IMG/VR virus record: IMGVR_UViG_3300021387_000082
Coordinates: 1-36,894 of that record
Direction: 5' to 3' (one strand)
DNA length: 36,894 bases
From: a virus
Both the position numbers and the translations under genes were made by a program. The number at the start of each line of letters is the position of its first letter. The first letter of the stretch is position 1. Shown here one piece after another: positions 2,107 to 36,144 of the stretch. The notes below the pieces were generated by a model. The model was not told the DNA's origin, made no database searches, and was given only the letters and a program-made list of their open reading frames with translations.

Positions 2107-2148
2107 GTGACCCTTGATGGATTCAAAATTTATCACTATTTTGTCAGA

Positions 2149-3384
2149 ATGATAACCTTCAAACCCATCGTAATCCCCGGCAACCGCCGGAAGGACGGCA
2201 CATACCCCGTCAAAATTCGCGTCACGTTCCGGGGTAAGACCCGGCGGCTGGCCACAACACTTGTAGCCCGGCAGACAGACCTTTCCCGGTCATTACATAT
2301 CAAGTCCCCGGACATACTCAACCGGGCAAACGAACTGATAAAGGAGATGCGGGCGGCGGTGTCCGACCTCTCCCCTTTCGTCATTGAGGGCTGGGATGTG
2401 GACAGGGTGGTGGCGCACATACATACCAAACTGCGGGAGGAAAACTTCGCGCTGGACTTCTTCGCGTGGAGCGATTCGTACCTGTCTCGAAAATCGCCCA
2501 GCACCCGGCGGGCCTACGATATGGCACTCCGGGCTTTCGATCGGTTTCTTGGGAGACGGACGATAGATATAAACGACATCACGAAAGCCCTACTGCTGGA
2601 CTTCGTGGAGAAGAACGACTCGGAAACCAAGATGCAGTACAACCCCCGGACGGGGGAATGGATTGATACCGGGAAACCGAGGAAGGGCGGTGCGAGTTCC
2701 CGGCATCTGGCCAAACTCGCCCACTTGTTTAACGCCGCGAAGCAAAGGTACAATGATGATGACAAGATACTGATTCCGCGCAGTCCGTTTGATGCCATCC
2801 CCAAGCCCGTCCCTCCATCCGAGGGAGCGCGTGCGCTGACCGCCGAGGAATTGCAGATGGTCATTGATTCCGGGCCTGACTTCGCCCGCGACATCTTCCT
2901 CCTTTCCTTTGCCACAATGGGCGCGAATCTCGCGGATATGTACGCCGCCAAACCCCAACTATCCCGCTGGGTCTATAACCGCCGCAAAACGGAACACAGG
3001 CGGCAAGACGGGGCGATTATGAAGGTGGATATTCCCGGCGAAGTGTCCGGGATTATTGGGAGGTTACAGGCTGGCCCGGCGGGATGGTGGATCCCGGCCC
3101 TGCATCGGTACTCCACCTGTAACGGCTGCACCGCACGGGTGAACGCCGGGTTGAAAGAATGGGCCACGGAAAACCACCTCCCTGACACGGAACATATCTC
3201 CTTCTATTCGGCCCGGAAAACGTGGGCTACGATTGCCCGGAAACTTGGTGTAGAAAAGGCCACGATAGATGAGTGCCTGTGCCACGTTGGGGACTATCGG
3301 ATGACGGATATTTATGCGGAAAGAGATTTCGACTTGATGAACGCCGCGAACAGGAAGGTGATAGAATCCTTCCGCTGGCCGTAA
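2149..3384 (+). CDS. int: Tyrosine recombinase / phage integrase with a Bacteroidota-type Arm DNA-binding N-terminus
   Basis: MITFKPIVIPGNRRKDGTYPVKIRVTFRGKTRRLAT is Arm-domain-like. The C-terminal catalytic region reads ...FYSARKTWATIA...CLCHVGDYRMTDIYAERD (R..H..Y). ATG 2149 is preferred over the track's GTG 2107. Confidence 0.85.
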   Translation: MITFKPIVIPGNRRKDGTYPVKIRVTFRGKTRRLATTLVARQTDLSRSLHIKSPDILNRANELIKEMRAAVSDLSPFVIEGWDVDRVVAHIHTKLREENFALDFFAWSDSYLSRKSPSTRRAYDMALRAFDRFLGRRTIDINDITKALLLDFVEKNDSETKMQYNPRTGEWIDTGKPRKGGASSRHLAKLAHLFNAAKQRYNDDDKILIPRSPFDAIPKPVPPSEGARALTAEELQMVIDSGPDFARDIFLLSFATMGANLADMYAAKPQLSRWVYNRRKTEHRRQDGAIMKVDIPGEVSGIIGRLQAGPAGWWIPALHRYSTCNGCTARVNAGLKEWATENHLPDTEHISFYSARKTWATIARKLGVEKATIDECLCHVGDYRMTDIYAERDFDLMNAANRKVIESFRWP

Positions 3385-5915: not shown

Positions 5916-5936
5916 CTTTAACATTCATATCTTATG
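5916..5936 (+). promoter_or_regulatory. Pre-start box, copy b
   Basis: ctttaacattcatatcttATG. Confidence 0.5.
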
Positions 5937-6584
5937 GAACAAAAGAAATCCGTTTTCGCAGTATTGAACGAAATCAACTGCAATGACCACACCGAGCAGA
6001 AGAAGGCCGGGTACTCAACTCTTACTTATCTCTCTTGGGCTTGGGCCTGGCAAATCTGCAAGCAGAATTTCCCCGATGCCACCTATACCATCTACGAGAA
6101 TGACAAGGGGTGGAACTATCACACCGATGGCCGGACGGCTTGGGTCAAGACCGGGGTCACGATTAACGGGCTGGAGCATATCGAATACCTCCCGGTTATG
6201 AACTCCCGGAATCAGTCCATTATCCTTGACGATGTGACAAGTTTCGATGTCAATAAAGCCATCCAGCGGTCACTCACCAAAGCCCTCGCCCGGCACGGCT
6301 TGGGCCTGTACATCTACGCCGGGGAGGACTTACCCGATGCCGCCGACGATGAAGCCCGCGCCGAGGTTAAGAAGACCCGCCAGCAGCACAAGAAAGATGC
6401 GATACAGAACTCCGAGTATTGGGCTATCGTCCGGGCCTACGCCAGCGGTAAGCCCACGAAGTCCGGCGGTGATTATCGGCAGACTTGGATAGAGAACTAC
6501 AACCCGAGCCAAGAGGACATCGCCAAGTTCGACGCAGATGTGGAAGGATATAAGGCCGCACAGGCCGGGCAAGCAATCCTGTAA
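5934..6584 (+). CDS. Rad52/Sak-type single-strand annealing protein (DUF1071-like)
   Basis: LTYLSWAWAWQ...VKTGVTINGLEHIEYLPVMNSRNQ...FDVNKAIQRSLTKALARHGLGLYIYAGEDLP matches the Sak/DUF1071 signature as I remember it. Confidence 0.7.
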   Translation: MEQKKSVFAVLNEINCNDHTEQKKAGYSTLTYLSWAWAWQICKQNFPDATYTIYENDKGWNYHTDGRTAWVKTGVTINGLEHIEYLPVMNSRNQSIILDDVTSFDVNKAIQRSLTKALARHGLGLYIYAGEDLPDAADDEARAEVKKTRQQHKKDAIQNSEYWAIVRAYASGKPTKSGGDYRQTWIENYNPSQEDIAKFDADVEGYKAAQAGQAIL

Positions 6585-9802: not shown

Positions 9803-10264
9803 ATGCCCTACTACATCAAGCGCAAACCGAAGACCCCGAAGTCGGGTATCAAGGAACGGAAACCCAGCACCGCCGCCCTTGTGCGGAAATTGGATAAGGT
9901 TTTCTCCCTTTTTATCCGGCTTCGGGATTCGGCTGCGTACAACTACCAGTACTTCCGTTGTATCTCCTGCGGGCAAATCAAACCCTTTGAGCAAATGGAC
10001 TGCGGGCACTTCATTTCCCGGACGCACCAAGCCACCAGGTTCGATGAGGAAAACGCACACGGGGAGTGCAGGTTTTGCAACCGCTTTTCCGCTGACCACA
10101 TTATCGCCTACCAGCGCAACCTCGAAGCCAAAATCGGGAAAGACCGCGTGGATATGCTATTAGCAAGGGGACGGATGACAAAGAAGTGGAGCGCGTTTGA
10201 ACTGCAACTCCTTATCAAGCACTACCAGCAGGAAGTTGACAAGATGCAGGGAAAGTCTATTTAA
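9803..10264 (+). CDS. ninG: NinG/Rap-like recombination endonuclease
   Basis: FRCISCGQIKPFEQMDCGHFISRTHQATRFDEENAHGECRFCNRF matches the lambda NinG Cys/His pattern. The N-terminus is basic. Confidence 0.7.
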   Translation: MPYYIKRKPKTPKSGIKERKPSTAALVRKLDKVFSLFIRLRDSAAYNYQYFRCISCGQIKPFEQMDCGHFISRTHQATRFDEENAHGECRFCNRFSADHIIAYQRNLEAKIGKDRVDMLLARGRMTKKWSAFELQLLIKHYQQEVDKMQGKSI

Positions 10265-10575
10265 TGACGATGACGAAGATTGAGATAGGCGCGGCACTCG
10301 CTCGGGACAGGGTGGTGGAGCAGATGGTCTGCAACATCGCCCATACCCGCCTATCCCAGAACCTCAAAGACCTCTGCCAAATGGTCTACCTTATCCTACT
10401 GGAATACGATGAGGACAAAATCATAGACCTTTGGGAATCGGGCCAAATCCGCTTCTTCTTGGCACGGGTTATCGTCAATCAGTTGCGATCCCCGCGCTCT
10501 CCCTACCACGCCGTCATCCGGCGATTCTCATCCCGGACAGACGACATAACGGACAAAGACTTCGCCGATGAATGA
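10264..10575 (+). CDS. Sigma-70/ECF-like factor, region-2 half
   Basis: DLCQMVYLILLEYDEDKIIDLWESGQIRFFLARVIVNQLRSPRSPYH resembles sigma region 2.1-2.4. Confidence 0.5.
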   Translation: MTMTKIEIGAALARDRVVEQMVCNIAHTRLSQNLKDLCQMVYLILLEYDEDKIIDLWESGQIRFFLARVIVNQLRSPRSPYHAVIRRFSSRTDDITDKDFADE

Positions 10576-10864
10576 TGTACTACGGGACTACAAGGAAATC
10601 CGCAAGGACTTCGAGATAGACGATTCTATCTTCAACGCCGAGCCGGACAAGGTACGCCGGATAAAGGAAATCGTGCTGAATCGGCTTGACCAAGTGGAGC
10701 GCACCCTTATTCTCCTGTACGCCGACTGCGGAAGCCTGCGGGATTTGGGGAAAAGATTGGGGATGTCCTACGGGAGTGTCAAGCGGGTACTTGACCCAAT
10801 CAAGGAGAAGATACTTACTGAATACTACGAAATGACTGCAAAGGAAATCAAGGAACGATTATGA
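10568..10864 (+). CDS. Sigma-70/ECF-like factor, region-4 (HTH) half
   Basis: LDQVERTLILLYADCGSLRDLGKRLGMSYGSVKRVLDPIKEKI resembles the sigma region 4 HTH. It starts in the ATGAATGA overlap with the region-2 ORF, in the +1 frame. Confidence 0.5.
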   Translation: MNDVLRDYKEIRKDFEIDDSIFNAEPDKVRRIKEIVLNRLDQVERTLILLYADCGSLRDLGKRLGMSYGSVKRVLDPIKEKILTEYYEMTAKEIKERL

Positions 10865-11324: not shown

Positions 11325-11641
11325 CCATCTACGCACAACTCCCTATCGTGGCCGCGATTGTCGTTTATATCGTGGATGTATCCGGCTTCACGCAGTCGTG
11401 GAGGGATGCCCTCGCCCGGAAACTTAAAGTCCGGGAACTGCGCCCGCTGAAACCCTTTGACTGCGGACAATGTATGACGTGGTGGGCGTGTTTAATCTAC
11501 TCTATTTGTGTGGATTTCTCGCTGCTCGCCGTTGCTGAATCCGCTGCGCTCTCGTTGCTCTCCGTAACAATCGCCGCCGCGCTGCTATTTATTCGTGAAG
11601 GCTCGTTGTGGATTTTTGACAAACTCACGCCCAAATGGTAG
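11321..11641 (+). CDS. Multi-pass membrane protein (106 aa)
   Basis: Hydrophobic segments IVAAIVVYIVDV, WWACLIYSICVDFSLLAV and ALSLLSVTIAAALLFI. Confidence 0.6.
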   Translation: MTIYAQLPIVAAIVVYIVDVSGFTQSWRDALARKLKVRELRPLKPFDCGQCMTWWACLIYSICVDFSLLAVAESAALSLLSVTIAAALLFIREGSLWIFDKLTPKW

Positions 11642-11889
11642 ACTATATCTCCGTTATCGTTGAGAACCTGACCGGGTTCGACCCGCTCAAAGACACGCGC
11701 AAGCGGGGGAACGTGGAAGCCCGGGCCTTATTGGCCAACGCCCTGCTGACGATGGGAATGACCGAAACGGAGACCGGGGACTTGCTGGGGAAGAACCACT
11801 CCACCATCCACCACTACCGGGACTTGCTCAAAGACCTCCCCGGCCTTCAAAAGACTTGGGAACGACTGAAAAAGATACTTGATATATGA
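11635..11889 (+). CDS. DnaA-domain-IV-like HTH DNA-binding protein
   Basis: KRGNVEARALLANALLTMGMTETETGDLLGKNHSTIHHY resembles the DnaA C-terminal HTH. Confidence 0.45.
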   Translation: MVDYISVIVENLTGFDPLKDTRKRGNVEARALLANALLTMGMTETETGDLLGKNHSTIHHYRDLLKDLPGLQKTWERLKKILDI

Positions 11890-12203
11890 CTGACCGCGAT
11901 TTCAACTACCTCCAGCAGTACGAAGATAACCTCCGTACCGCCGTCCGCTCCGGCTGGGCACGCAACCCCGGACGAAGCGCCCTGCAAGGCATCTACGACA
12001 TCGTACACGAAACAGAGCAGCTGCCCCGGTTCAACCCCGGCTGCGCGTCCTGTGTCCTCTCCATCTTGCAGAAGGCCGGGCGGCTGTACTTCATAGAGAA
12101 GGCCGATCGCGAAAATAAGGCCCTAAACGCGCCATTAAAGCCCGCGCCGGATAATTCCCCCAAGAAACCCGGAAGGGCCGGGAAATCGAAAAGTAAAGCA
12201 TAA
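11886..12203 (+). CDS. Hypothetical protein with a basic C-terminus (105 aa)
   Basis: ATGA overlap at the start. Confidence 0.6.
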   Translation: MTDRDFNYLQQYEDNLRTAVRSGWARNPGRSALQGIYDIVHETEQLPRFNPGCASCVLSILQKAGRLYFIEKADRENKALNAPLKPAPDNSPKKPGRAGKSKSKA

Positions 12204-12215
12204 ATATCAAACGAT

Positions 12216-12794
12216 ATGAAGAAATCCAAAATACAGGAAATCGACCTTTCCCGTATCCAAATGAATGAGGGGCAAATTGATTGGCTCCCCCGGAATCCCC
12301 GACAGGCCACCAAAGAGGACATCGAAAAGACAGTCAAGTCTATCCAAGAGGATGAGGACTTCCTGGAGGATAGGCCAGTCCTTCTCACGCCGTCCGACAC
12401 CGCGCTGGTGTCCTTCGGCGGCAATCTTCGCAGCATCGCCGCACGAAAGGCCGGGAAGAAAACCATCCCCGGAGTTATCTATATCCCGGAGAACGATGCC
12501 GACCGGGAAACAATCAAGCGCCGCGCCCTCAAAGATAACGGGCAATTCGGAAGCTGGGACTATGACATCCTCGCCAACGAGTGGGAAGGCCCGCTCCAAG
12601 ATTGGGGCGTACCCGCGTGGGCCGCACCGAGTTTCGCCCCGAACCTCAATCCGGTGGATGGCGTTGACCCCGTGACGGATGAGGACATCGCCGAAGCGGA
12701 AGGCAAACTATCCGAGGAAGTGACCCCATCCGAAAAACAACTCATCGAAATTGTCTGCCCGCATTGCGGCAAAGTATTCGAGTTCCGTATATGA
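12216..12794 (+). CDS. ParB N-terminal (ParB/Srx-fold) domain protein with a C-terminal zinc ribbon
   Basis: IQMNEGQIDWLPRNPR...ALVSFGGNLRSIAARKAGKKTIPGVIYIP is ParB-box-like. The C-terminus contains CPHCGKVFEF. Confidence 0.65.
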   Translation: MKKSKIQEIDLSRIQMNEGQIDWLPRNPRQATKEDIEKTVKSIQEDEDFLEDRPVLLTPSDTALVSFGGNLRSIAARKAGKKTIPGVIYIPENDADRETIKRRALKDNGQFGSWDYDILANEWEGPLQDWGVPAWAAPSFAPNLNPVDGVDPVTDEDIAEAEGKLSEEVTPSEKQLIEIVCPHCGKVFEFRI

Positions 12795-13003
12795 GCAACT
12801 TCGACCAATTCCTGCTCCGCGCCAAGTGGAACTGGGCCAAGACCTACGAAAAGAAAGCACCACACTGGTATGTAGTCCGCGCCGAGTTCGCAGACGATGA
12901 ACTATTCAACCGCGTGGTCGAAGAAATTAGGCAGAAAGCCGTCCCGGAAAAGTTCTTTTCCAAGACTTTCCACTACTTCTATCACGGCGGCTATAAGTAC
13001 TGA
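12791..13003 (+). CDS. Hypothetical protein (70 aa). An in-frame TGA is followed by 17 more open codons reaching 13057.
   Basis: ATGA overlap at the start. After TGA 13001-13003 the same frame reads TMGNPIEQTTIINRAKV and ends in a TAATG overlap with the next gene. Confidence 0.55.
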   Translation: MSNFDQFLLRAKWNWAKTYEKKAPHWYVVRAEFADDELFNRVVEEIRQKAVPEKFFSKTFHYFYHGGYKY

Positions 13004-13056
13004 ACGATGGGAAACCCGATTGAACAAACCACCATTATAAACCGCGCAAAGGTCTA

Positions 13057-14268
13057 ATGGAATACTACTACAATGAGGATGTATTGAGCGCGGCCCGGCG
13101 GCGGGTCGCGTGGGTCTTTGATAACTTCCCGCATATCGTGGTAGGTTTCTCCGGGGGCAAGGATTCGACATGTGTCCTGCACCTCGCACTCGAAGAAGCC
13201 GAGAAACGCAACCGCCTTCCCCTCGAAGTGTTCTTCATTGACCAAGAGGGCGAATGGGACTGCACCATTGATTATGTCCGGCAAGTGATGTACGACCCCC
13301 GCGTGAAACCAGCGTGGTTGCAAGTCCCGATGGTGCTTTTCAACGCCACCGCCACCAACGGATACGACCAATGGCTGCATTGCTGGTATCCCGGCGAAGA
13401 CTGGCTCCGTGAGAAAGACCCAATCTCCATCAAAGAAAATACTTTCGGCACAGAACGATTCCACGAATTGTTCACCGCGTGGCTGGATAAGACCTACCCC
13501 GATACACCCGTTGCGTATCTCTCCGGGGTGCGCTGCGAGGAATCCCCGAAACGGAAGATAAATATAACAGGAGGCAAGAAGGGCAATCCGTTCTATAAGT
13601 GGGTTTTTTGGGGGCGGGGTACAAACGAGGCGATGCACCATTATACTTTCTACCCGATTTACGATTGGGGCTTCGCCGATGTTTGGAAGGCTATCCACGA
13701 CCACAACTGGCCGTACTGCAAACTCTATGACTACCAATATATGCACGGGGTCAAAGTGCGTGATATGCGCGTGTCGAATGTACACCACGAAACCGCCATA
13801 CAAAATCTTTGGTATATGCAAGAAGTTGAGCCGGACTTATGGAATCGCTTAACCGCCCGGCTGGACGGCATAAATACTTCCGCAGTCTTGAATAAGGAAC
13901 TATTCGAGATTAAGGAACTGCCGTATATGTTCAAGGACTGGGAAGAATACCGGGACTATCTGCTTGACCACCTCATCGAAGAAGAAGAACGGCGCAAGGC
14001 TTTCGTTGACCTTTGGGCCGTGCATTTCCACGGCTTCAGAAGTTCTTGGGAGCGGTGCAAGGTGTGCAACTATTGGCGTGAGGAATTTATGAAGGTCTGC
14101 GTGAAGTGCCTGCTCAAAAACGATTTTGAGGGGACTACCATCGTGAACTTCTTTATGAACTCAGCGACTACCGACTTGAACACTTACATAAAGACTGGCG
14201 CAGTAAAGAAAGGGTACAAGCCGGAAAAGTACACACTCGCATATATGAAACAAATCGGCGTAAAATGA
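13057..14268 (+). CDS. PP-loop ATP pyrophosphatase of the PAPS-reductase family (IbrA/DndC-like)
   Basis: VVGFSGGKDSTCVLHLALEEAEKRNRLPLEVFFIDQEGEW carries the SGGxDS PP-loop and a PAPS_reduct-like core. It has a long C-terminal extension. Confidence 0.75.
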   Translation: MEYYYNEDVLSAARRRVAWVFDNFPHIVVGFSGGKDSTCVLHLALEEAEKRNRLPLEVFFIDQEGEWDCTIDYVRQVMYDPRVKPAWLQVPMVLFNATATNGYDQWLHCWYPGEDWLREKDPISIKENTFGTERFHELFTAWLDKTYPDTPVAYLSGVRCEESPKRKINITGGKKGNPFYKWVFWGRGTNEAMHHYTFYPIYDWGFADVWKAIHDHNWPYCKLYDYQYMHGVKVRDMRVSNVHHETAIQNLWYMQEVEPDLWNRLTARLDGINTSAVLNKELFEIKELPYMFKDWEEYRDYLLDHLIEEEERRKAFVDLWAVHFHGFRSSWERCKVCNYWREEFMKVCVKCLLKNDFEGTTIVNFFMNSATTDLNTYIKTGAVKKGYKPEKYTLAYMKQIGVK

Positions 14269-15011
14269 CAAAGACTTTCATAATCGTTTCCGTGTCAGAC
14301 AGGGTGCAGGAGTTGAATAACTTGGTGGATTCAATCATCGCCAATGGCTTCGATGACTACCACATCGCCCTGTATCTTCAAGACCCGGAAGGCCGGGCCG
14401 GGGAGATACGCAACCGGGGCAGATACTCGGACATCTTTGTTGTGCCGGAAAAGGAGGGATGCCACGCCGCCCGCGTTCATCTTCTTCGCAAGGTGCGCTC
14501 GGACATCTATATCAATCTTGATGACGATATGCTACTCACTCCGTACACGCGGTATGACCGGGCTATCGTCAAGGCCCTTGAACGCGGGACGGGATTCGTA
14601 CTGACTAACTGGGCGCGGACGCAGAAACTTATGATGGCAAAAGTCCCGAAGATGCGGGAAAAGTTTATCCCGCAGATTATGTGCTATCAAGGTGGCGGTA
14701 TGGTCTACGCGGATAAGATAGCCGAACTTATGCGGGGCCTCCCGGCAGACGGATTCCGATACGATGACCTTTGGAGCCTCACCGCATACATTAACGGCTA
14801 CACGAATTATGCGTACAAAGGGTCTCTGGCGATTCACATGGTCTGCACCAAAGGAGGTATGCGGAGTTGGATGGCCGATACCAACCCGCCCTATGCTTGC
14901 GCTCGTTTCATAAACTACCGAAAACTCAAAGACGGTGTTTATGCCATAGGGATGGATTCCGATGTAAACGACTACGCGAGGGAACTACACAAACGCAATG
15001 CAAGGGGCTGA
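14265..15011 (+). CDS. Putative GT-A fold glycosyltransferase
   Basis: FIIVSVSDRVQELNNLVDSIIANGFDDYHIALYLQD is a GT2-like beta-alpha-beta start. INLDDDMLL is a DxD motif. No TM segment is present. ATGA overlap with the PP-loop gene. Confidence 0.5.
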   Translation: MTKTFIIVSVSDRVQELNNLVDSIIANGFDDYHIALYLQDPEGRAGEIRNRGRYSDIFVVPEKEGCHAARVHLLRKVRSDIYINLDDDMLLTPYTRYDRAIVKALERGTGFVLTNWARTQKLMMAKVPKMREKFIPQIMCYQGGGMVYADKIAELMRGLPADGFRYDDLWSLTAYINGYTNYAYKGSLAIHMVCTKGGMRSWMADTNPPYACARFINYRKLKDGVYAIGMDSDVNDYARELHKRNARG

Positions 15012-15200
15012 AAACCAGCGATTTGCCGCAGGAATGGAAATTTAATTTTAGGCCGTTTTAGGGGGCATAAAGGAGCGAAACGATACGGAATACCAAAAAT
15101 GATTTCGCGCTCGCTGGCACCGCATTTTTTTTCGGGGACGAAAAAGCCACGGCAGACCACGGAGCAGTAGCGATTTCTGAATTATTAAGATTATTTTTTA

Positions 15201-15228
15201 TCTCATTTTGATATGTAACATATTGATT
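15201..15228 (+). promoter_or_regulatory. Possible promoter/operator in front of the IbrB-like gene
   Basis: AT-rich region. TCATTTTG (15203-15210) is a near TAnnTTTG match. A 13-bp palindrome ATATGT-A-ACATAT lies at 15211-15223. Confidence 0.35.
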
Positions 15229-15903
15229 ATGAACTATAAAGAAATAATACTCGCAGAGGCGGAAGAGGCCCCGGACAAGTTCGCATTTCTAAACGAGGTG
15301 CAGGACTTCATCTACAAGAATCTCAACCCTACCGGGCAGCCCATCGGCAATGTGCGCTGGGTGCCGATTGATATGGTAGAGCCAAACGACTACAACCCCA
15401 ATTCAGTCGCGGTAAAGGAAATGTCCCTGCTCTACACCTCAATATCGCACGATGGATATACGCAGCCAATCGTCACGATATACGACCCCAAACGCGGGAA
15501 GTACATAATCGTTGACGGCTTCCATCGCTACTTCACGGCGAAGCGGCATAAAGACATCGCGGAACGAAACCACGGGATGCTTCCGATTGTCGTAATCGAA
15601 AAGGACATCAATGAACGGATGGCAGCGACTGTCCGCCACAACCGCGCCCGTGGCAAGCACTCCATCGCGGGTATGTCATCAATGGTATTTCAGATGCTCA
15701 AAAACGGAATGAGCGATGCCGACATCTGCAACGAACTTGGGATGGAGCCGGAGGAACTTTTGAAGCTGAAACATATCACGGGATTCAGCAAACTATTCGA
15801 GAATCGGGAGTATGGAAAGGCTTGGGAATCACAACGCCAAATGCAGACTCGCCTCGAATACAACCGCGAACACCCGGAGGAAAAGCCCTTCACGATGGAA
15901 TAG
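15229..15903 (+). CDS. IbrB-like ParB N-terminal domain protein
   Basis: VEPNDYNPNSV...SISHDGYTQPIVTIYDPKRGKYIIVDGFHRYFTAK...VRHNRARGKH. ATG 15229 is preferred over the track's TTG 15208. Confidence 0.65.
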   Translation: MNYKEIILAEAEEAPDKFAFLNEVQDFIYKNLNPTGQPIGNVRWVPIDMVEPNDYNPNSVAVKEMSLLYTSISHDGYTQPIVTIYDPKRGKYIIVDGFHRYFTAKRHKDIAERNHGMLPIVVIEKDINERMAATVRHNRARGKHSIAGMSSMVFQMLKNGMSDADICNELGMEPEELLKLKHITGFSKLFENREYGKAWESQRQMQTRLEYNREHPEEKPFTME

Positions 15904-15973
15904 CAGAAAACCACACAGGCGGGCATAAACAACCGGGTCGGCGCAATCCACCGACGGAGTCGTTCACGCCCGC

Positions 15974-15988
15974 AGAATCGAAAAATAG
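15974..15988 (+). repeat. 15-mer AGAATCGAAAAATAG, copy 2
   Basis: Exact match, 8 nt upstream of the TerS ATG. Confidence 0.9.
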
Positions 15989-15996
15989 AACGCATT

Positions 15997-16395
15997 ATGG
16001 CAAACGAGAAAAACATCATCCCGCACCAGTTCAAACCGGGAGATACCAGTGACAAAGCAGCGAATGGACGCAAGGGTGGCATCGCTTCCGGGAAGGCCAA
16101 ACGGAAACGCCGGGAACTGCGCGAAATCTTTGAAGCCATCCGCAAGACCCCGGTACAGGTTGCGATGCCGGATAGCACCATCAAGGAGGTAGACTTCGAT
16201 GAAGCCGCCGTCCTCGCTATGTACCGCAAAGCGATGAACGGGAACGTAGAAGCGATGAAACTTATAGCCACGATGCTCGGAGAGTATGAGCAGAAGGTAA
16301 AGGTGGAAGGCGCTAACCCCGTACTTGTGACCGATGGCGAACTGGCCGCGCTTAAAAAGTGGGCGAAGAACGATGACGAGGACTCCGGTATATGA
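15997..16395 (+). CDS. Terminase small subunit
   Basis: NGRKGGIASGKAKRKRRELREIFE is a typical TerS N-terminus. The gene lies immediately upstream of, and overlaps, TerL. Confidence 0.6.
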   Translation: MANEKNIIPHQFKPGDTSDKAANGRKGGIASGKAKRKRRELREIFEAIRKTPVQVAMPDSTIKEVDFDEAAVLAMYRKAMNGNVEAMKLIATMLGEYEQKVKVEGANPVLVTDGELAALKKWAKNDDEDSGI

Positions 16396-17590
16396 TAAGC
16401 TGATAGATGCGCTGAACTGCACGGGGAGTTACATATCTTCGTGCGGCGGTACTCGTTCCGGAAAGACCTTCGCCAATCTGCAACTCATCTACAAGCTGGC
16501 CCTCGCGGACACGAAGCCATCCATTACCTCGGTCGTGTCCGAAACCTTCCCGCACCTCAAACGCGGCGCGATTCGTGACTTTCAAGAAGTGCTTGGGGAT
16601 TTGTGGGATGAATCCTGTTGGTCGAAGGGCGGGAGCATCTATACCCTGCCAAACGGGTCAATCATTGAATTTTTCAGCGCGGACTCTCCCGGCAAGGTAC
16701 ACGGCCCGTCCCGTGACCGCCTGTTTCTCAACGAGGTGCAGAACATCCCGTGGGAGATTGCCCGGCAACTCTTTGTCCGTACCAAGGGGCTGAAAATCTT
16801 GGACTACAACCCGACTCACGAAGGATGGGTGCAGCAGAAGATTGAGCCGCTCCCCGAATGTGTGACCATCCACTCCACCTACAAGGATAACCCGTTTCTC
16901 ACGAAGGAGCAGGTCAACGTAATAGAAGCGAACAAAGACGATGCGAATTGGTGGCGGGTTTACGGGCTGGGGTTGGTAGGTTCGCTTGACGGGCTGATAT
17001 ACCCCGACTTTGAACTGATAGACGAAATGCCCGACCCGGAAGGGCTGCACGAAGTATGGGGGCTTGATTTCGGCTTCGCGGCAGACCCTACGGCCATTGT
17101 TCGGGTGCTGGCAGACAAGGCCCGGAAAACCTTGTATGTGGACGAGAAGTGCTACAAAGCCGGGATGTTCAATAAGGACATCTCCGACTTGCTGGCCGGG
17201 GAGGATATTCCCCGGTTCGTGAATATTTGGGCCGATGCCGCAGAACCGAAAGCCATCGCGGAAATCGGGCAGCAGACACGGCTGAAAATCAAACCCTGCG
17301 ACAAATCCGCGCCGACCCGCTCCGACCGCTTGAAATTCCAACTGCAATGGATGCAGGGCTGGAAGATAAAAGTGACGAAGCAGTCTCTGAACTGGATACG
17401 CGAAGCACGAAACTACACTTGGGAGAAAGACCGGGACGGCAATATTCTTGACCACCCGATTGACGGCTTCGACCATCTCCTTGACGCCACGCGCTACGCC
17501 ACGTTCTCCGAATTTGCGGGCCGGAATACGGGCGAGTATGTGGTAGGTTTTGCAAAGAAAACGATTCATTATGATACCTTGCATAGATAA
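16373..17590 (+). CDS. terL: Terminase large subunit (PBSX/XtmB-like)
   Basis: Walker A is CGGTRSGKT. Other motifs: DRLFLNEV and the nuclease part WGLDFGFAADPTA...DGFDHLLDATRYA. ATG 16373 is preferred over the track start at 16334. Confidence 0.85.
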   Translation: MTRTPVYDKLIDALNCTGSYISSCGGTRSGKTFANLQLIYKLALADTKPSITSVVSETFPHLKRGAIRDFQEVLGDLWDESCWSKGGSIYTLPNGSIIEFFSADSPGKVHGPSRDRLFLNEVQNIPWEIARQLFVRTKGLKILDYNPTHEGWVQQKIEPLPECVTIHSTYKDNPFLTKEQVNVIEANKDDANWWRVYGLGLVGSLDGLIYPDFELIDEMPDPEGLHEVWGLDFGFAADPTAIVRVLADKARKTLYVDEKCYKAGMFNKDISDLLAGEDIPRFVNIWADAAEPKAIAEIGQQTRLKIKPCDKSAPTRSDRLKFQLQWMQGWKIKVTKQSLNWIREARNYTWEKDRDGNILDHPIDGFDHLLDATRYATFSEFAGRNTGEYVVGFAKKTIHYDTLHR

Positions 17591-35223: not shown

Positions 35224-35244
35224 ATTTAACACTCATACCTTATG
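35224..35244 (+). promoter_or_regulatory. Pre-start box, copy e
   Basis: atttaacactcataccttATG. Confidence 0.5.
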
Positions 35245-36144
35245 AACAACAACGTCTATCAAATGGTCACCGACCGCATCTGTGAAATGCTGAACAAGGG
35301 CATTATCCCGTGGCAGCAGCCGTGGCACTTCAACACCCTCTCCGACGGCGAGGATTGCGCAATCTCCTACACCACCCGCCGGGCGTACTCGGTGCTGAAT
35401 CAGTGGCTGCTCGGCGAGCCGGGCGAGTACCTTACCTTCAACCAAATCCAAGAGCGGAAGGGCCATATCAAGAAAGGAGAGAAGGCCCGGATGGTGGTTT
35501 TCTTCAAGCAGACCCAGTACAAGGAGAAAGACCCGGAGACGGGCGAGGAAGTACTGAAATCCTACCCCCTGCTCCGCTACTACAATGTATGGCACATCAA
35601 GCAGACGGAAGGGATTGAATCCAAAGTCAAGACCGGGGAGCAGGAAGTCAAGACCCTTGACCCGATTACCGAAGCGGAAGCCGCCATCCTCGGCTACTTG
35701 ACCCGCGAAGCCGACCTCAAATTCTTCAATGACAAGCCCTCCGGGAAAGCCTACTACTCCCCCGCCGAGGACAAGGTGGTCGTTCCGATGCTGGGGCAGT
35801 ACGACATCGCCGCCGAGTATTACTCCACGACCTTCCACGAACTTGTCCACTCCACGATGAAGGAATCCCGCTGCAACCGGGTGGCCGATAATAAGCGGTC
35901 ATTCTTCGGAAACTCCGAGTACTCCCGCGAGGAGCTGGTTGCCGAGATGGGCGCGGCGATGCTCTGCTCCAACTCCGGGATAGATTCTGCCAAAGCCTTC
36001 CGCAATTCGGTGGCCTACATACAGGGATGGCTTAAAGAATTGAAGAACGACCCCAAGATGATTGTCTGGGCCGCTGGCCGGGCCGAGAAAGCCGCCCGGT
36101 ACATCGTCGGCGGGCCGGAGGCAATCAAAGTGAAAACCCTTTAA
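35242..36144 (+). CDS. ardC: ArdC-like anti-restriction protein (N-terminal ssDNA-binding DUF1738 domain plus zincin metalloprotease domain)
   Basis: VTDRICEMLNKGIIPWQQPW...YSVLNQWLL...LTFNQIQERKGHIKKGEK... and the HELVHS zinc motif with SREELVAEMGAAMLC. Confidence 0.8.
   Translation: MNNNVYQMVTDRICEMLNKGIIPWQQPWHFNTLSDGEDCAISYTTRRAYSVLNQWLLGEPGEYLTFNQIQERKGHIKKGEKARMVVFFKQTQYKEKDPETGEEVLKSYPLLRYYNVWHIKQTEGIESKVKTGEQEVKTLDPITEAEAAILGYLTREADLKFFNDKPSGKAYYSPAEDKVVVPMLGQYDIAAEYYSTTFHELVHSTMKESRCNRVADNKRSFFGNSEYSREELVAEMGAAMLCSNSGIDSAKAFRNSVAYIQGWLKELKNDPKMIVWAAGRAEKAARYIVGGPEAIKVKTL

Follow-up and report, generated by a model that had tools for sequence, protein, structure and literature searches.

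An IbrA/IbrB-type gene module with a variable enzyme slot upstream of the terminase genes in a predicted temperate phage genome

The window analyzed here is the whole 36,894-nt IMG/VR virus record IMGVR_UViG_3300021387_000082, and the subject is a module of five consecutive open reading frames (ORFs), A to E, on its plus strand just upstream of the terminase genes. An earlier note on this DNA had proposed these five genes as a candidate modification or control system, and all five were confirmed at the positions given below. Domains were assigned by Pfam and PHROG profile searches, with gathering scores as the cut-offs for Pfam families where these are given. The profiles agreed with the domain calls of the note for the cluster, and for D an AlphaFold2 (AF2) model agreed as well.

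Products of the five genes

C (13057-14268, plus strand) matches PAPS_reduct (PF01507; 6.3e-16, 59.3 bits against a cut-off of 22.5), DUF3440 (PF11922; 1.8e-9, 38 bits against 25), and phrog_2302 (1e-82). These matches uphold its assignment as an SGGKDS PP-loop enzyme of the 3′-phosphoadenosine 5′-phosphosulfate (PAPS) reductase family and place it with the IbrA/YbdN-type proteins. SGGKDS (S32-G33-G34-K35-D36-S37) is invariant in 78 C-family sequences, as are DQExE, GxRxxE..R, and RxS...HE, and judged by these motifs C is an ATP pyrophosphatase. No Cys column is invariant in the same 78 sequences, the best one being 58% Cys.

The models of CysH, CysD, and DndC match C only at the PP-loop or over a short C-terminal stretch. 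C was rejected as CysH or CysD on scores far below the cut-offs (TIGR02057, 27.9 vs 254; TIGR00434, 25.3 vs 165; CysD, 31.9 vs 195 bits), as a PAPS reductase since it has no conserved C-terminal catalytic Cys, and as DndC since TIGR03183 gave 25.8 bits against a cut-off of 290.4 and covered residues 20-45 only. In PADLOC, the DndC match was limited to residues 19-77, and the DndC and SspD matches were at the level of the PP-loop. C also showed weak matches to the TilS, QueC, and NadE models, those to TilS and QueC being confined to the PP-loop (QueC, E 0.082). Since the C family lacks a conserved cysteine, neither phosphorothioation nor PAPS reduction is expected of it, and the analogy with DndC drawn in the earlier note fails on chemical grounds. 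Likewise, the label "auxiliary sulfur metabolism gene" is unsupported because the CysH and CysD scores are far below the cut-offs and no catalytic Cys is conserved.

E (15229-15903, plus strand) is an IbrB/YbdM-type protein of the ParB/Srx fold (phrog_2159, 6.6e-73; ParB_N, 1.3e-5) with a C-terminal region resembling a helix-turn-helix (HTH), where residues 126-197 weakly match the invertase HTH family phrog_125. NDYNPNSV, DGFHR, and HNRARGxH are invariant in 14 sequences, including those of cultured Flavobacterium, Streptococcus, Mycobacterium, and Faecalibacterium phages, and E is 52% identical to the protein annotated as IbrB in the S. thermophilus phage CHPC1148. The reading of E as a second ParB-fold protein with DGFHR and HNRARGKH was therefore correct. 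E also weakly matches the SerK and SbnI models. Neither E nor A is a canonical ParB of the ParABS type: E scored 24.8 against 58.45 bits (TIGR00180), A gave no match, and no ParA-type gene was found among the family matches of the window ORFs.

C and E are a genuine co-evolving pair. Their identities co-vary (rho 0.78, p 0.008), and genes of the two types are neighbors in most loci, including Flavobacterium, Streptococcus, Mycobacterium, and Faecalibacterium phages and dozens of IMG/VR loci; in the window, only D and a 218-nt gap part C from E. The analogy with IbrA/IbrB made in the earlier note holds: C has PAPS_reduct plus DUF3440, and E has phrog_2159 and the invariant DGFHR of the ParB-like partner. 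By every comparison that could be made, C and E are members of the IbrA/IbrB family, a kinship that does not in itself reveal a mechanism. What sets the pair of the window apart is that it is split by a glycosyltransferase (GT) gene and the 218-nt gap and is preceded by a second ParB-fold protein and B. PDB sequence searches with C and E returned only trivial motif-level matches, and no solved structure of the IbrA or IbrB type was found.

The gap between D and E (15012-15228) is AT-rich, non-coding, and without an Rfam match. It contains the palindrome mentioned in the earlier note (ATATGT-A-ACATAT, 15211-15223); however, this has 6-bp arms at chance level, and a scan for inverted repeats found nothing longer in the gap. 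On the plus strand of the gap, scans for sigma-70 promoters and terminators gave nothing above background. At the same position, L001 has no gap, and L002 and L118/L119 have a GNAT gene, to which the gap retains no similarity. The gap is possibly a deletion scar or a promoter region.

D (14265-15011, plus strand) is a soluble protein that matches Glycos_transf_2 (PF00535) over residues 6-120 with 26.6 bits against a cut-off of 23.3. Its AF2 model (pLDDT 94.3, pTM 0.91) has a GT-A fold, and a Foldseek search with the model gave 625 PDB matches at E<=1e-3, of which the top ones were all GT-A enzymes (TMq 0.52-0.63). The best of these were GalNAc-T2, B4GALNT1, TarS, K4CP, and the nucleoside GT AvpGT (E about 1e-8); viral GT2-like proteins in BFVD matched D at a similar level. 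NLDDD (N84, D86-D88), H191, and YQGGGM are invariant in an alignment of 41 D sequences. We are therefore confident, on the strength of the profile, the model, and the invariant DDD, in the earlier call of D as a GT-A enzyme. A PDB sequence search with D returned only trivial motif-level matches.

Among 5.8 billion proteins, 148 belong to the D family; each is about 250 aa long, and none is named. The family occurs in one of 185,579 species genomes, a metagenome-assembled genome (MAG) of Planctomycetaceae, and a tblastn search with D against 50,697 GenBank phage records gave no match. A search of the same records for DNA nearly identical to the cluster was likewise negative.

A (12216-12794, plus strand) is a stand-alone ParB/Srx-fold protein of 192 aa. 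It matches phrog_17622 (2e-18), phrog_940 (9e-11), and phrog_498 (ParB-DNA methyltransferase, 1.2e-9), with E values of 1e-9 to 1e-11 to the ParB-like and ParB-methyltransferase families of PHROG, and only weakly the Pfam family ParB_N (E 0.061); a box-II-like motif, GGNLRSIAARKAG, is present. The ParB domain claimed for A thus stands, whereas the CPHCG "zinc ribbon" is a single C-terminal CxxC without a four-Cys ribbon (Pfam Zn_ribbon, E 0.08). This CxxC is a real hallmark of the A family because 67 of the 72 distinct A-type proteins have it. A stands at the 5′ end of the module, where it is conserved across the census loci described below. By its profile matches, A is a ParB domain of the kind found in other phages in fusions with DNA methyltransferases or S-adenosylmethionine (SAM or AdoMet) methyltransferases; phage ParB folds are known from fusions with N6_N4 and Methyltransf_23 methyltransferases and as binders of ATP, CTP, or GTP (PMC12704722).

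B (12791-13003, plus strand) covers the N-terminal 70 codons of a domain of roughly 88 aa without an assigned function and ends at a TGA (13001-13003). As the earlier note had described, this TGA lies in frame, and the frame stays open to a TAA (13055-13057) that overlaps the ATG of C. The in-frame remainder on the plus strand (13004-13057; TMGNPIEQTTIINRAKV) would be translated only with read-through of the TGA, and it aligns to the C-terminus of intact B homologues, which are about 90 aa long and carry the motifs FAKT..PHxY, GYKYWTMGN, and INRAKV. The TGA replaces a conserved Trp codon that reads TGG in the closest loci, L001 and L002, and the protein P0171, 96% identical to B, is intact; on the other hand, the same 70-aa call was obtained on the ENA contig L114, which carries an identical D protein. 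Since TGA is also the stop codon of both A and C, recoding is unlikely. The stop could reflect a pseudogene, low-level read-through, or a strain variant. It also bears on the proposed coupling of the first four genes: the ATGA overlaps A/B and C/D follow from the coordinates, whereas the TAATG at B/C couples the genes only with read-through.

At least 372 homologues of B were found, none of them named and none with a Pfam domain. The AF2 model of B (pLDDT 95.8) is a small alpha/beta domain, and a PDB fold search with it gave no significant neighbor (best E 0.2). Elsewhere, the domain is fused to class I SAM methyltransferases (L003:5176-5922, L014:2740-3522), to a SET domain (L082:2647-3378), and to an uncharacterized N-terminal region (L113:8911-9906). 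B is a candidate new adaptor domain.

Recurrence of the module and its variable slot

IMG/VR searches seeded with D and C yielded 21 loci, in which A, B, C, E, and the large terminase gene (terL) occur in the same order at 30-85% identity. A clustering census covered 113 loci, 80 of them seeded only with IbrB, and its canonical order was ParB(A) – B – cargo – IbrA – IbrB – (ParB) – TerS – TerL. The repeated finding of these genes together, in dozens of diverged loci, puts the arrangement far beyond chance. The conserved co-occurrence of PAPS-reductase-like, GT-A, and two ParB-fold genes beside terminases, for which the earlier note had suggested a search, was thus found.

In the 80 IbrB-seeded loci, IbrA was present in 71, a second ParB in 46, and B in 49, where it either stands by itself or is part of a fusion with a class I methyltransferase or a SET domain. 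Their cargo comprised DPPW N6_N4 DNA methylases (16 loci), GNATs (16 loci), D-type GTs (5 loci), and the internally homologous c9/c44/c137 family (22 in total). An hhalign comparison of the last of these with the D family gave a probability of 77% (E 2e-5), and a profile-to-PDB search with c9 gave weak GT matches only (E 0.04-0.7). GT-A-like genes of two families fill the slot in about a third of the IbrB-seeded loci. Further cargo included TylF-type methyltransferases, AdoMet decarboxylases of two families, and a cupin-like protein. This cupin-like protein (L094:1799-2320; family c35 in L045, L070, L080, and L097) has an invariant H..D...H and stands with c9 cargo directly 5′ of IbrA; conceivably, it acts as a hydroxylase alongside a transferase.

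Decarboxylase genes are recurrent members of the module. A pyruvoyl arginine decarboxylase gene lies inside it in two unrelated lineages (L003/L004 and L033), and arginine or AdoMet decarboxylases recur in independent lineages (L003/L004, L033, L005/L006, L057/58/62, and L072/82; for example, L003:7888-8400, L033:2102-2593, L005:2217-2585, and L072:5721-6104). They hint at amine donors (agmatine, decarboxylated AdoMet) or at a supply of polyamines for packaging. In L118/L119, whose D is 76% identical, a GNAT gene is accompanied by a radical SAM enzyme of the spore photoproduct lyase (SPL)/PA0069/Rv2578c group (L118:11626-12465), located between IbrB and TerL. The Planctomycetaceae locus L113 has a GT, the N-terminal region fused to B, a class I methyltransferase, IbrA, an FkbM methyltransferase, and IbrB. 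Genes for an AbiEii-type AAA_21 ATPase, an RloB-like protein, and a RelA/SpoT-domain protein adjoin the module in this MAG (L113:1360-4530), a neighborhood that looks like a defence island or a prophage-borne defence cassette.

In all 22 census loci where both genes were detected, no more than about 3 kb separates D from IbrA. The order is C-D in the window, L001, L002, and L118, D-C in L003-L012, and IbrA, ParB, ParB, [methyltransferase], GT in L022, L025, and L033. Co-divergence of D, C, and E was expected; however, only C and E co-diverge. A 644-aa ORF joining D to IbrA (L005:2854-4788) differs by one base in an A-run from the corresponding stretch of L006 (2213-4142), where the two genes are separate, and is probably an assembly or sequencing artefact. 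Because the divergence of D is uncoupled from that of C and E and the fusion amounts to an A-run difference, D is best classed, from these comparisons, as cargo faithful to the module and not as a core subunit.

The core of the module has been annotated before. Of the 214 cultured phage records with C-type genes, 90 are of Flavobacterium, 60 of Mycobacterium, and 21 of Streptococcus phages; the gene annotations in these records read IbrA, 'PAPS reductase', or DUF3440 protein. IbrB-type genes occur in at least 589 IMG/VR loci. IbrA/IbrB has PHROG families and a SEED subsystem, whose label reads activation of prophage gene expression. Therefore, the statement in the earlier note that the cluster was not a system that could be named no longer applies to the core. 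The Flavobacterium phage FCL-2 has the pair between its terL and portal genes, 1H is another phage of Flavobacterium with the module, and the Faecalibacterium phage Taranis has a nuclease gene, IbrA, IbrB, two small ORFs, TerS, and TerL. The same pair is present in E. coli K-12 as ybdN/ybdM under the repressor YbdO (PMC9068703).

The closest precedent for the layout is the left arm of the cluster B3 mycobacteriophage Kamiyu, in which gp1-gp6 encode a ParB-like protein, gp2, gp3, a PAPS-reductase-like protein, a ParB-like protein, and the terminase. Its likeness to the window lies in a pair of ParB-fold genes on either side of small ORFs and an IbrA-type gene, directly 5′ of the terminase, and BLAST detected homology for C (2.7e-21) and E (1e-22) at only 26-35% identity. 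Kamiyu differs in having no GT, and its gp1-gp3 have no BLAST-detectable similarity to A or B. Its IbrB-type gp5 overlaps the terminase gene gp6 (L030, 2151-4474), and no small terminase is annotated there. In some phages, then, recognition of the DNA to be packaged might involve IbrB-type proteins.

The IbrA/IbrB pair and the arrangement of a PAPS-reductase-like gene with two ParB genes and a terminase gene are thus already annotated in cultured phages. New relative to the literature found are the description of the module and of its cargo slot, the phage-exclusive D family together with its constant association with the module, the B domain with its methyltransferase and SET fusions, and the exclusion of sulfur chemistry.

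Genome context

The module stands where the early genes give way to the packaging genes. The terminase genes directly follow it on the plus strand, as the earlier note had it. The candidate small subunit TerS (DUF5681, 15997-16395) matches PF18932 with 27.5 bits, exactly at the cut-off, and phrog_2412 (6.9e-18); the large subunit TerL (16334-17590) matches Terminase_3C (8.7e-14), Terminase_6N (1.2e-5), and phrog_2 (1.3e-37). A promoter (sigma-70) and terminator scan of 11500-16500 stayed at background level.

Family matches elsewhere in the window identified an integrase (2107-3384), a Sak annealing protein (5934-6584), NinG (9803-10264), and, upstream of the module, a sigma-70 region-4-like/HTH protein (10568-10864). 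Portal, protease, and structural genes were also recognized. Judged by this gene content, the genome is that of a temperate, siphovirus-like phage. The sigma-70 region-4-like match is the second of two small overlapping ORFs 5′ of the module (10264-10864), which together may constitute a phage sigma-like late regulator. Near the end of the window lies a gene for an ArdC-N plus MPTase-PolyVal (zincin) protein of the anti-restriction type (35242-36144), a homologue of which is also found 5′ of the module in L118. Genes of this type are more typical of conjugative elements.

Many ORFs of the window have no family match, and the following negatives are to be read with this limit. Consistent with the earlier note, no methyltransferase was detected among the family matches, nor were a hydroxymethylase, TET/JBP, a tRNA-guanine transglycosylase (TGT), QueD, or QueE. 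No cysteine desulfurase or DndD/E homologue was found among the Pfam matches, and no decarboxylase or tRNA-related gene among the family matches. Searches for tRNAs and Rfam families found none in the window.

Possible functions of the module

We tentatively favor the reading, plausible though well short of probable, that the module modifies phage DNA ahead of packaging, in a reaction guided by ParB and activated by ATP, with swappable decorating enzymes. E, through its ParB/Srx fold and HTH-like region, would bind phage DNA and a nucleotide and would position or activate C. C would use ATP to adenylate an oxygen on the target, most probably in or on phage DNA, and the cargo enzyme of the phage in question, here D with a nucleotide-sugar donor, would then decorate the activated or modified site. 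A and B (truncated here) would form a second, accessory sub-unit, which elsewhere is fused to or paired with SAM methyltransferases. The DNA would thereby be covalently marked just before packaging and escape host restriction. We infer DNA as the substrate, the order of these steps, and the anti-restriction benefit.

This modification reading is suggested first by the pair itself. The closest characterized pairs of a ParB-superfamily protein with a DNA-modifying enzyme (DndB-DndC, DpdB-DpdA) act on DNA; C keeps a complete PP-loop and invariant polar residues without cysteines; and E keeps the DGFHR box and the HTH-like C-terminus and co-evolves with C. The cargo points the same way, since it includes DNA N6/N4 methylase domains (16 of the 80 loci) and GNATs and, in L118/L119, an SPL/PA0069-type radical SAM enzyme of a DNA-acting family between IbrB and TerL. 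The fusion of phage ParB folds to methyltransferases (PMC12704722) is in line with this. Additionally, D is confidently a GT-A enzyme with an invariant DDD that stays within about 3 kb of IbrA despite shuffled gene order, the window genome has no recognizable methyltransferase of its own, and the module keeps a constant position just 5′ of the packaging genes.

The comparison with known DNA modification systems shows both likeness and distance. Like C and E, DndB-DndC combines a PP-loop ATP pyrophosphatase of the PAPS reductase family with a ParB-superfamily partner and acts on DNA, and SspD and BrxP are further DNA-acting relatives of the PAPS_reduct domain. C is not a member of the DndC/SspD/BrxP group, which it matches only at the PP-loop; its family lacks conserved cysteines, and the window lacks a recognizable desulfurase or DndD/E. 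In the DpdA/DpdB system, the ParB-like NTPase DpdB assists a DNA-modifying enzyme, the TGT homologue DpdA, by driving base exchange in DNA as an ATPase, and the PP-loop enzyme QueC belongs to the pathway; the window differs in having no detected TGT/DpdA homologue and in matching the QueC model only at the PP-loop (E 0.08). A is of the same ParB type (phrog_498) as the phage ParB-methyltransferase/GNAT fusions, and sister loci in which A is followed by a DPPW DNA methylase, or B is fused to a class I methyltransferase, resemble split versions of these fusions (PMC12704722). The window itself lacks a methyltransferase partner, and its B is truncated. Set beside the GT-A DNA glycosyltransferases (TET-associated and base-J GTs) and the T4-type hydroxymethylcytosine glucosyltransferases, D has a GT-A fold, and a TET-associated GT and a T-even glucosyl-hydroxymethylcytosine transferase are among its BFVD matches; however, these score no better than generic GT2 enzymes, and no TET/JBP or dNMP hydroxymethylase was found in the window.

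Several observations weigh against modification of DNA. Foldseek did not bring D nearer to known DNA GTs than to generic GT2 enzymes, the TET-associated GT (TAGT) and the T-even glucosyl-hydroxymethylcytosine transferase ranking 21 and 35 among its BFVD matches. The divergence of D tracks neither that of IbrA nor that of IbrB, so D may act independently, and B is cut short in this genome. Other cargo (TylF and FkbM sugar O-methyltransferases, SET, and AdoMet/arginine decarboxylases) fits glycan, protein, or polyamine chemistry equally well or better. No enzyme that would make a glycosyl acceptor in DNA, such as a hydroxymethylase or TET/JBP, was detected among the window ORFs, many of which are unmatched. 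The one functional report known, by Sandt et al. in 2002, reportedly describes activation of prophage gene expression by IbrA/IbrB. In the literature searched on IbrAB, on DUF3440, and on PAPS reductase in combination with ParB, glycosyltransferase, or terminase, only annotations turned up, with no functional or biochemical study and in particular no experiment linking IbrA/IbrB to DNA chemistry. Of the modification machinery proposed in the earlier note, a conserved module with a GT-A enzyme stands, whereas the GT is one of many cargo genes in a variable slot and not a fixed fourth component; the proposed succession of adenylate activation and glycosyl transfer on DNA was pure conjecture, and no acceptor-making enzyme was found.

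An unlikely explanation, though one to be taken seriously, is control of expression or packaging. IbrB would bind a site near the late operon or the pac region and, with IbrA, turn on the late or packaging genes or license packaging, the slot enzymes being unrelated passengers. The pair always adjoins terminase or portal genes, it lies downstream of sigma-like or RinA-like regulators in the window (10568-10864) and in Taranis, and the HTH-like region of E, the dedicated repressor of ybdNM in E. coli, and the overlap of the ParB-like gp5 of Kamiyu with a terminase gene that has no annotated TerS would all fit a regulatory role. Most loci, however, have separate TerS genes, and passengers would not account for the clustering of DNA methylases and ParB-methyltransferase-type parts inside the module or for an unnamed GT family confined to this context. 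The strict conservation of the full PP-loop catalytic site would also be left unexplained.

To a similar degree improbable, D may be an independent cargo gene in a recombination-permissive hot spot and glycosylate a target other than DNA, such as a virion protein, a small molecule, or a target on the surface or in the cytoplasm of the host. Mycobacteriophage capsids, for example, can be glycosylated. The high variability of the slot, the uncoupled divergence of D from IbrA and IbrB, and the position of D directly 5′ of structural genes agree with this, as do its best structural matches, which are protein and polysaccharide GTs (GalNAc-T2, TarS, and K4CP), and co-cargo typical of glycan tailoring (TylF-like in L007 and FkbM in L113 sugar O-methyltransferases, and GNATs). 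A free-standing moron would, however, be expected in other contexts too, whereas D lies beside IbrA/IbrB in every locus with enough flank, down to 44% identity and in rearranged orders, and its family is absent from cultured phages and occurs in only one of the 185,579 species genomes.

We regard as still less likely a nucleotide, polyamine, or RNA/tRNA substrate. In this scenario, modeled on TilS, QueC, and NAD synthetase, an amine or a sugar would be transferred after adenylation by the PP-loop enzyme, and the benefit could be a counter-ion for packaging or a reprogrammed translation. Many PP-loop enzymes act on tRNA or small molecules. The TilS, QueC, and NadE matches of C could be taken in this sense; however, they are weak and lie in the PP-loop region, to which those of TilS and QueC are confined. 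Arginine and AdoMet decarboxylases recur inside the module in independent lineages, whereas no decarboxylase, tRNA, or tRNA-related gene was found in the window. Similarly, ParB/Srx folds include small-molecule kinases, and E weakly matches SerK and SbnI, whereas the ParB plus HTH architecture and the linked DNA methylases point to DNA. Finally, DNA phosphorothioation by C (Dnd/Ssp/BREX type 4-like) is effectively refuted: DndB is ParB-like and the PADLOC DndC and SspD models and TIGR03183 do match the PP-loop region, but TIGR03183 reaches 25.8 bits against a 290-bit cut-off, DndC needs a cysteine dyad whereas no Cys is conserved across the 78 C-family members, and neither a cysteine desulfurase nor a DndD/E homologue was detected in the window.

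Returning to modification of phage DNA, the recurrence of the module allows a more general and more doubtful proposal, namely that IbrA/IbrB modules are a widespread and so far undescribed type of phage platform for DNA (hyper)modification. ParB-fold targeting and cysteine-free PP-loop adenylation would prepare the DNA, and interchangeable cargo would attach adducts before packaging, using GT-A enzymes such as D, GNATs, methyltransferases, or amine donors supplied by AdoMet/arginine decarboxylases. B would serve as an adaptor recruiting the transferases.

The function of the module in this phage is inferred, its core was already catalogued, and its B is truncated; the system is nevertheless widespread and experimentally approachable. 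IbrA/IbrB pairs, which are found in E. coli K-12 as well as in cultured phages by the hundreds and in at least 589 contigs of IMG/VR, are routinely mislabelled as 'PAPS reductase' auxiliary genes of sulfur metabolism. Our analysis shows that the pair is the anchor of a conserved module in which one slot takes interchangeable enzymes, that the pair has an ATP-pyrophosphatase site without sulfur chemistry, and that the module has captured a phage-exclusive glycosyltransferase family. A vague annotation thereby becomes a testable hypothesis of a new nucleic-acid modification or packaging-linked system, for which FCL-2, Kamiyu/Pipefish, CHPC1148, and Taranis are tractable model phages that carry the pair. 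If true, it would mean a new chemistry for phage anti-restriction and the correction of many metagenomic calls of auxiliary metabolic genes ('AMG').

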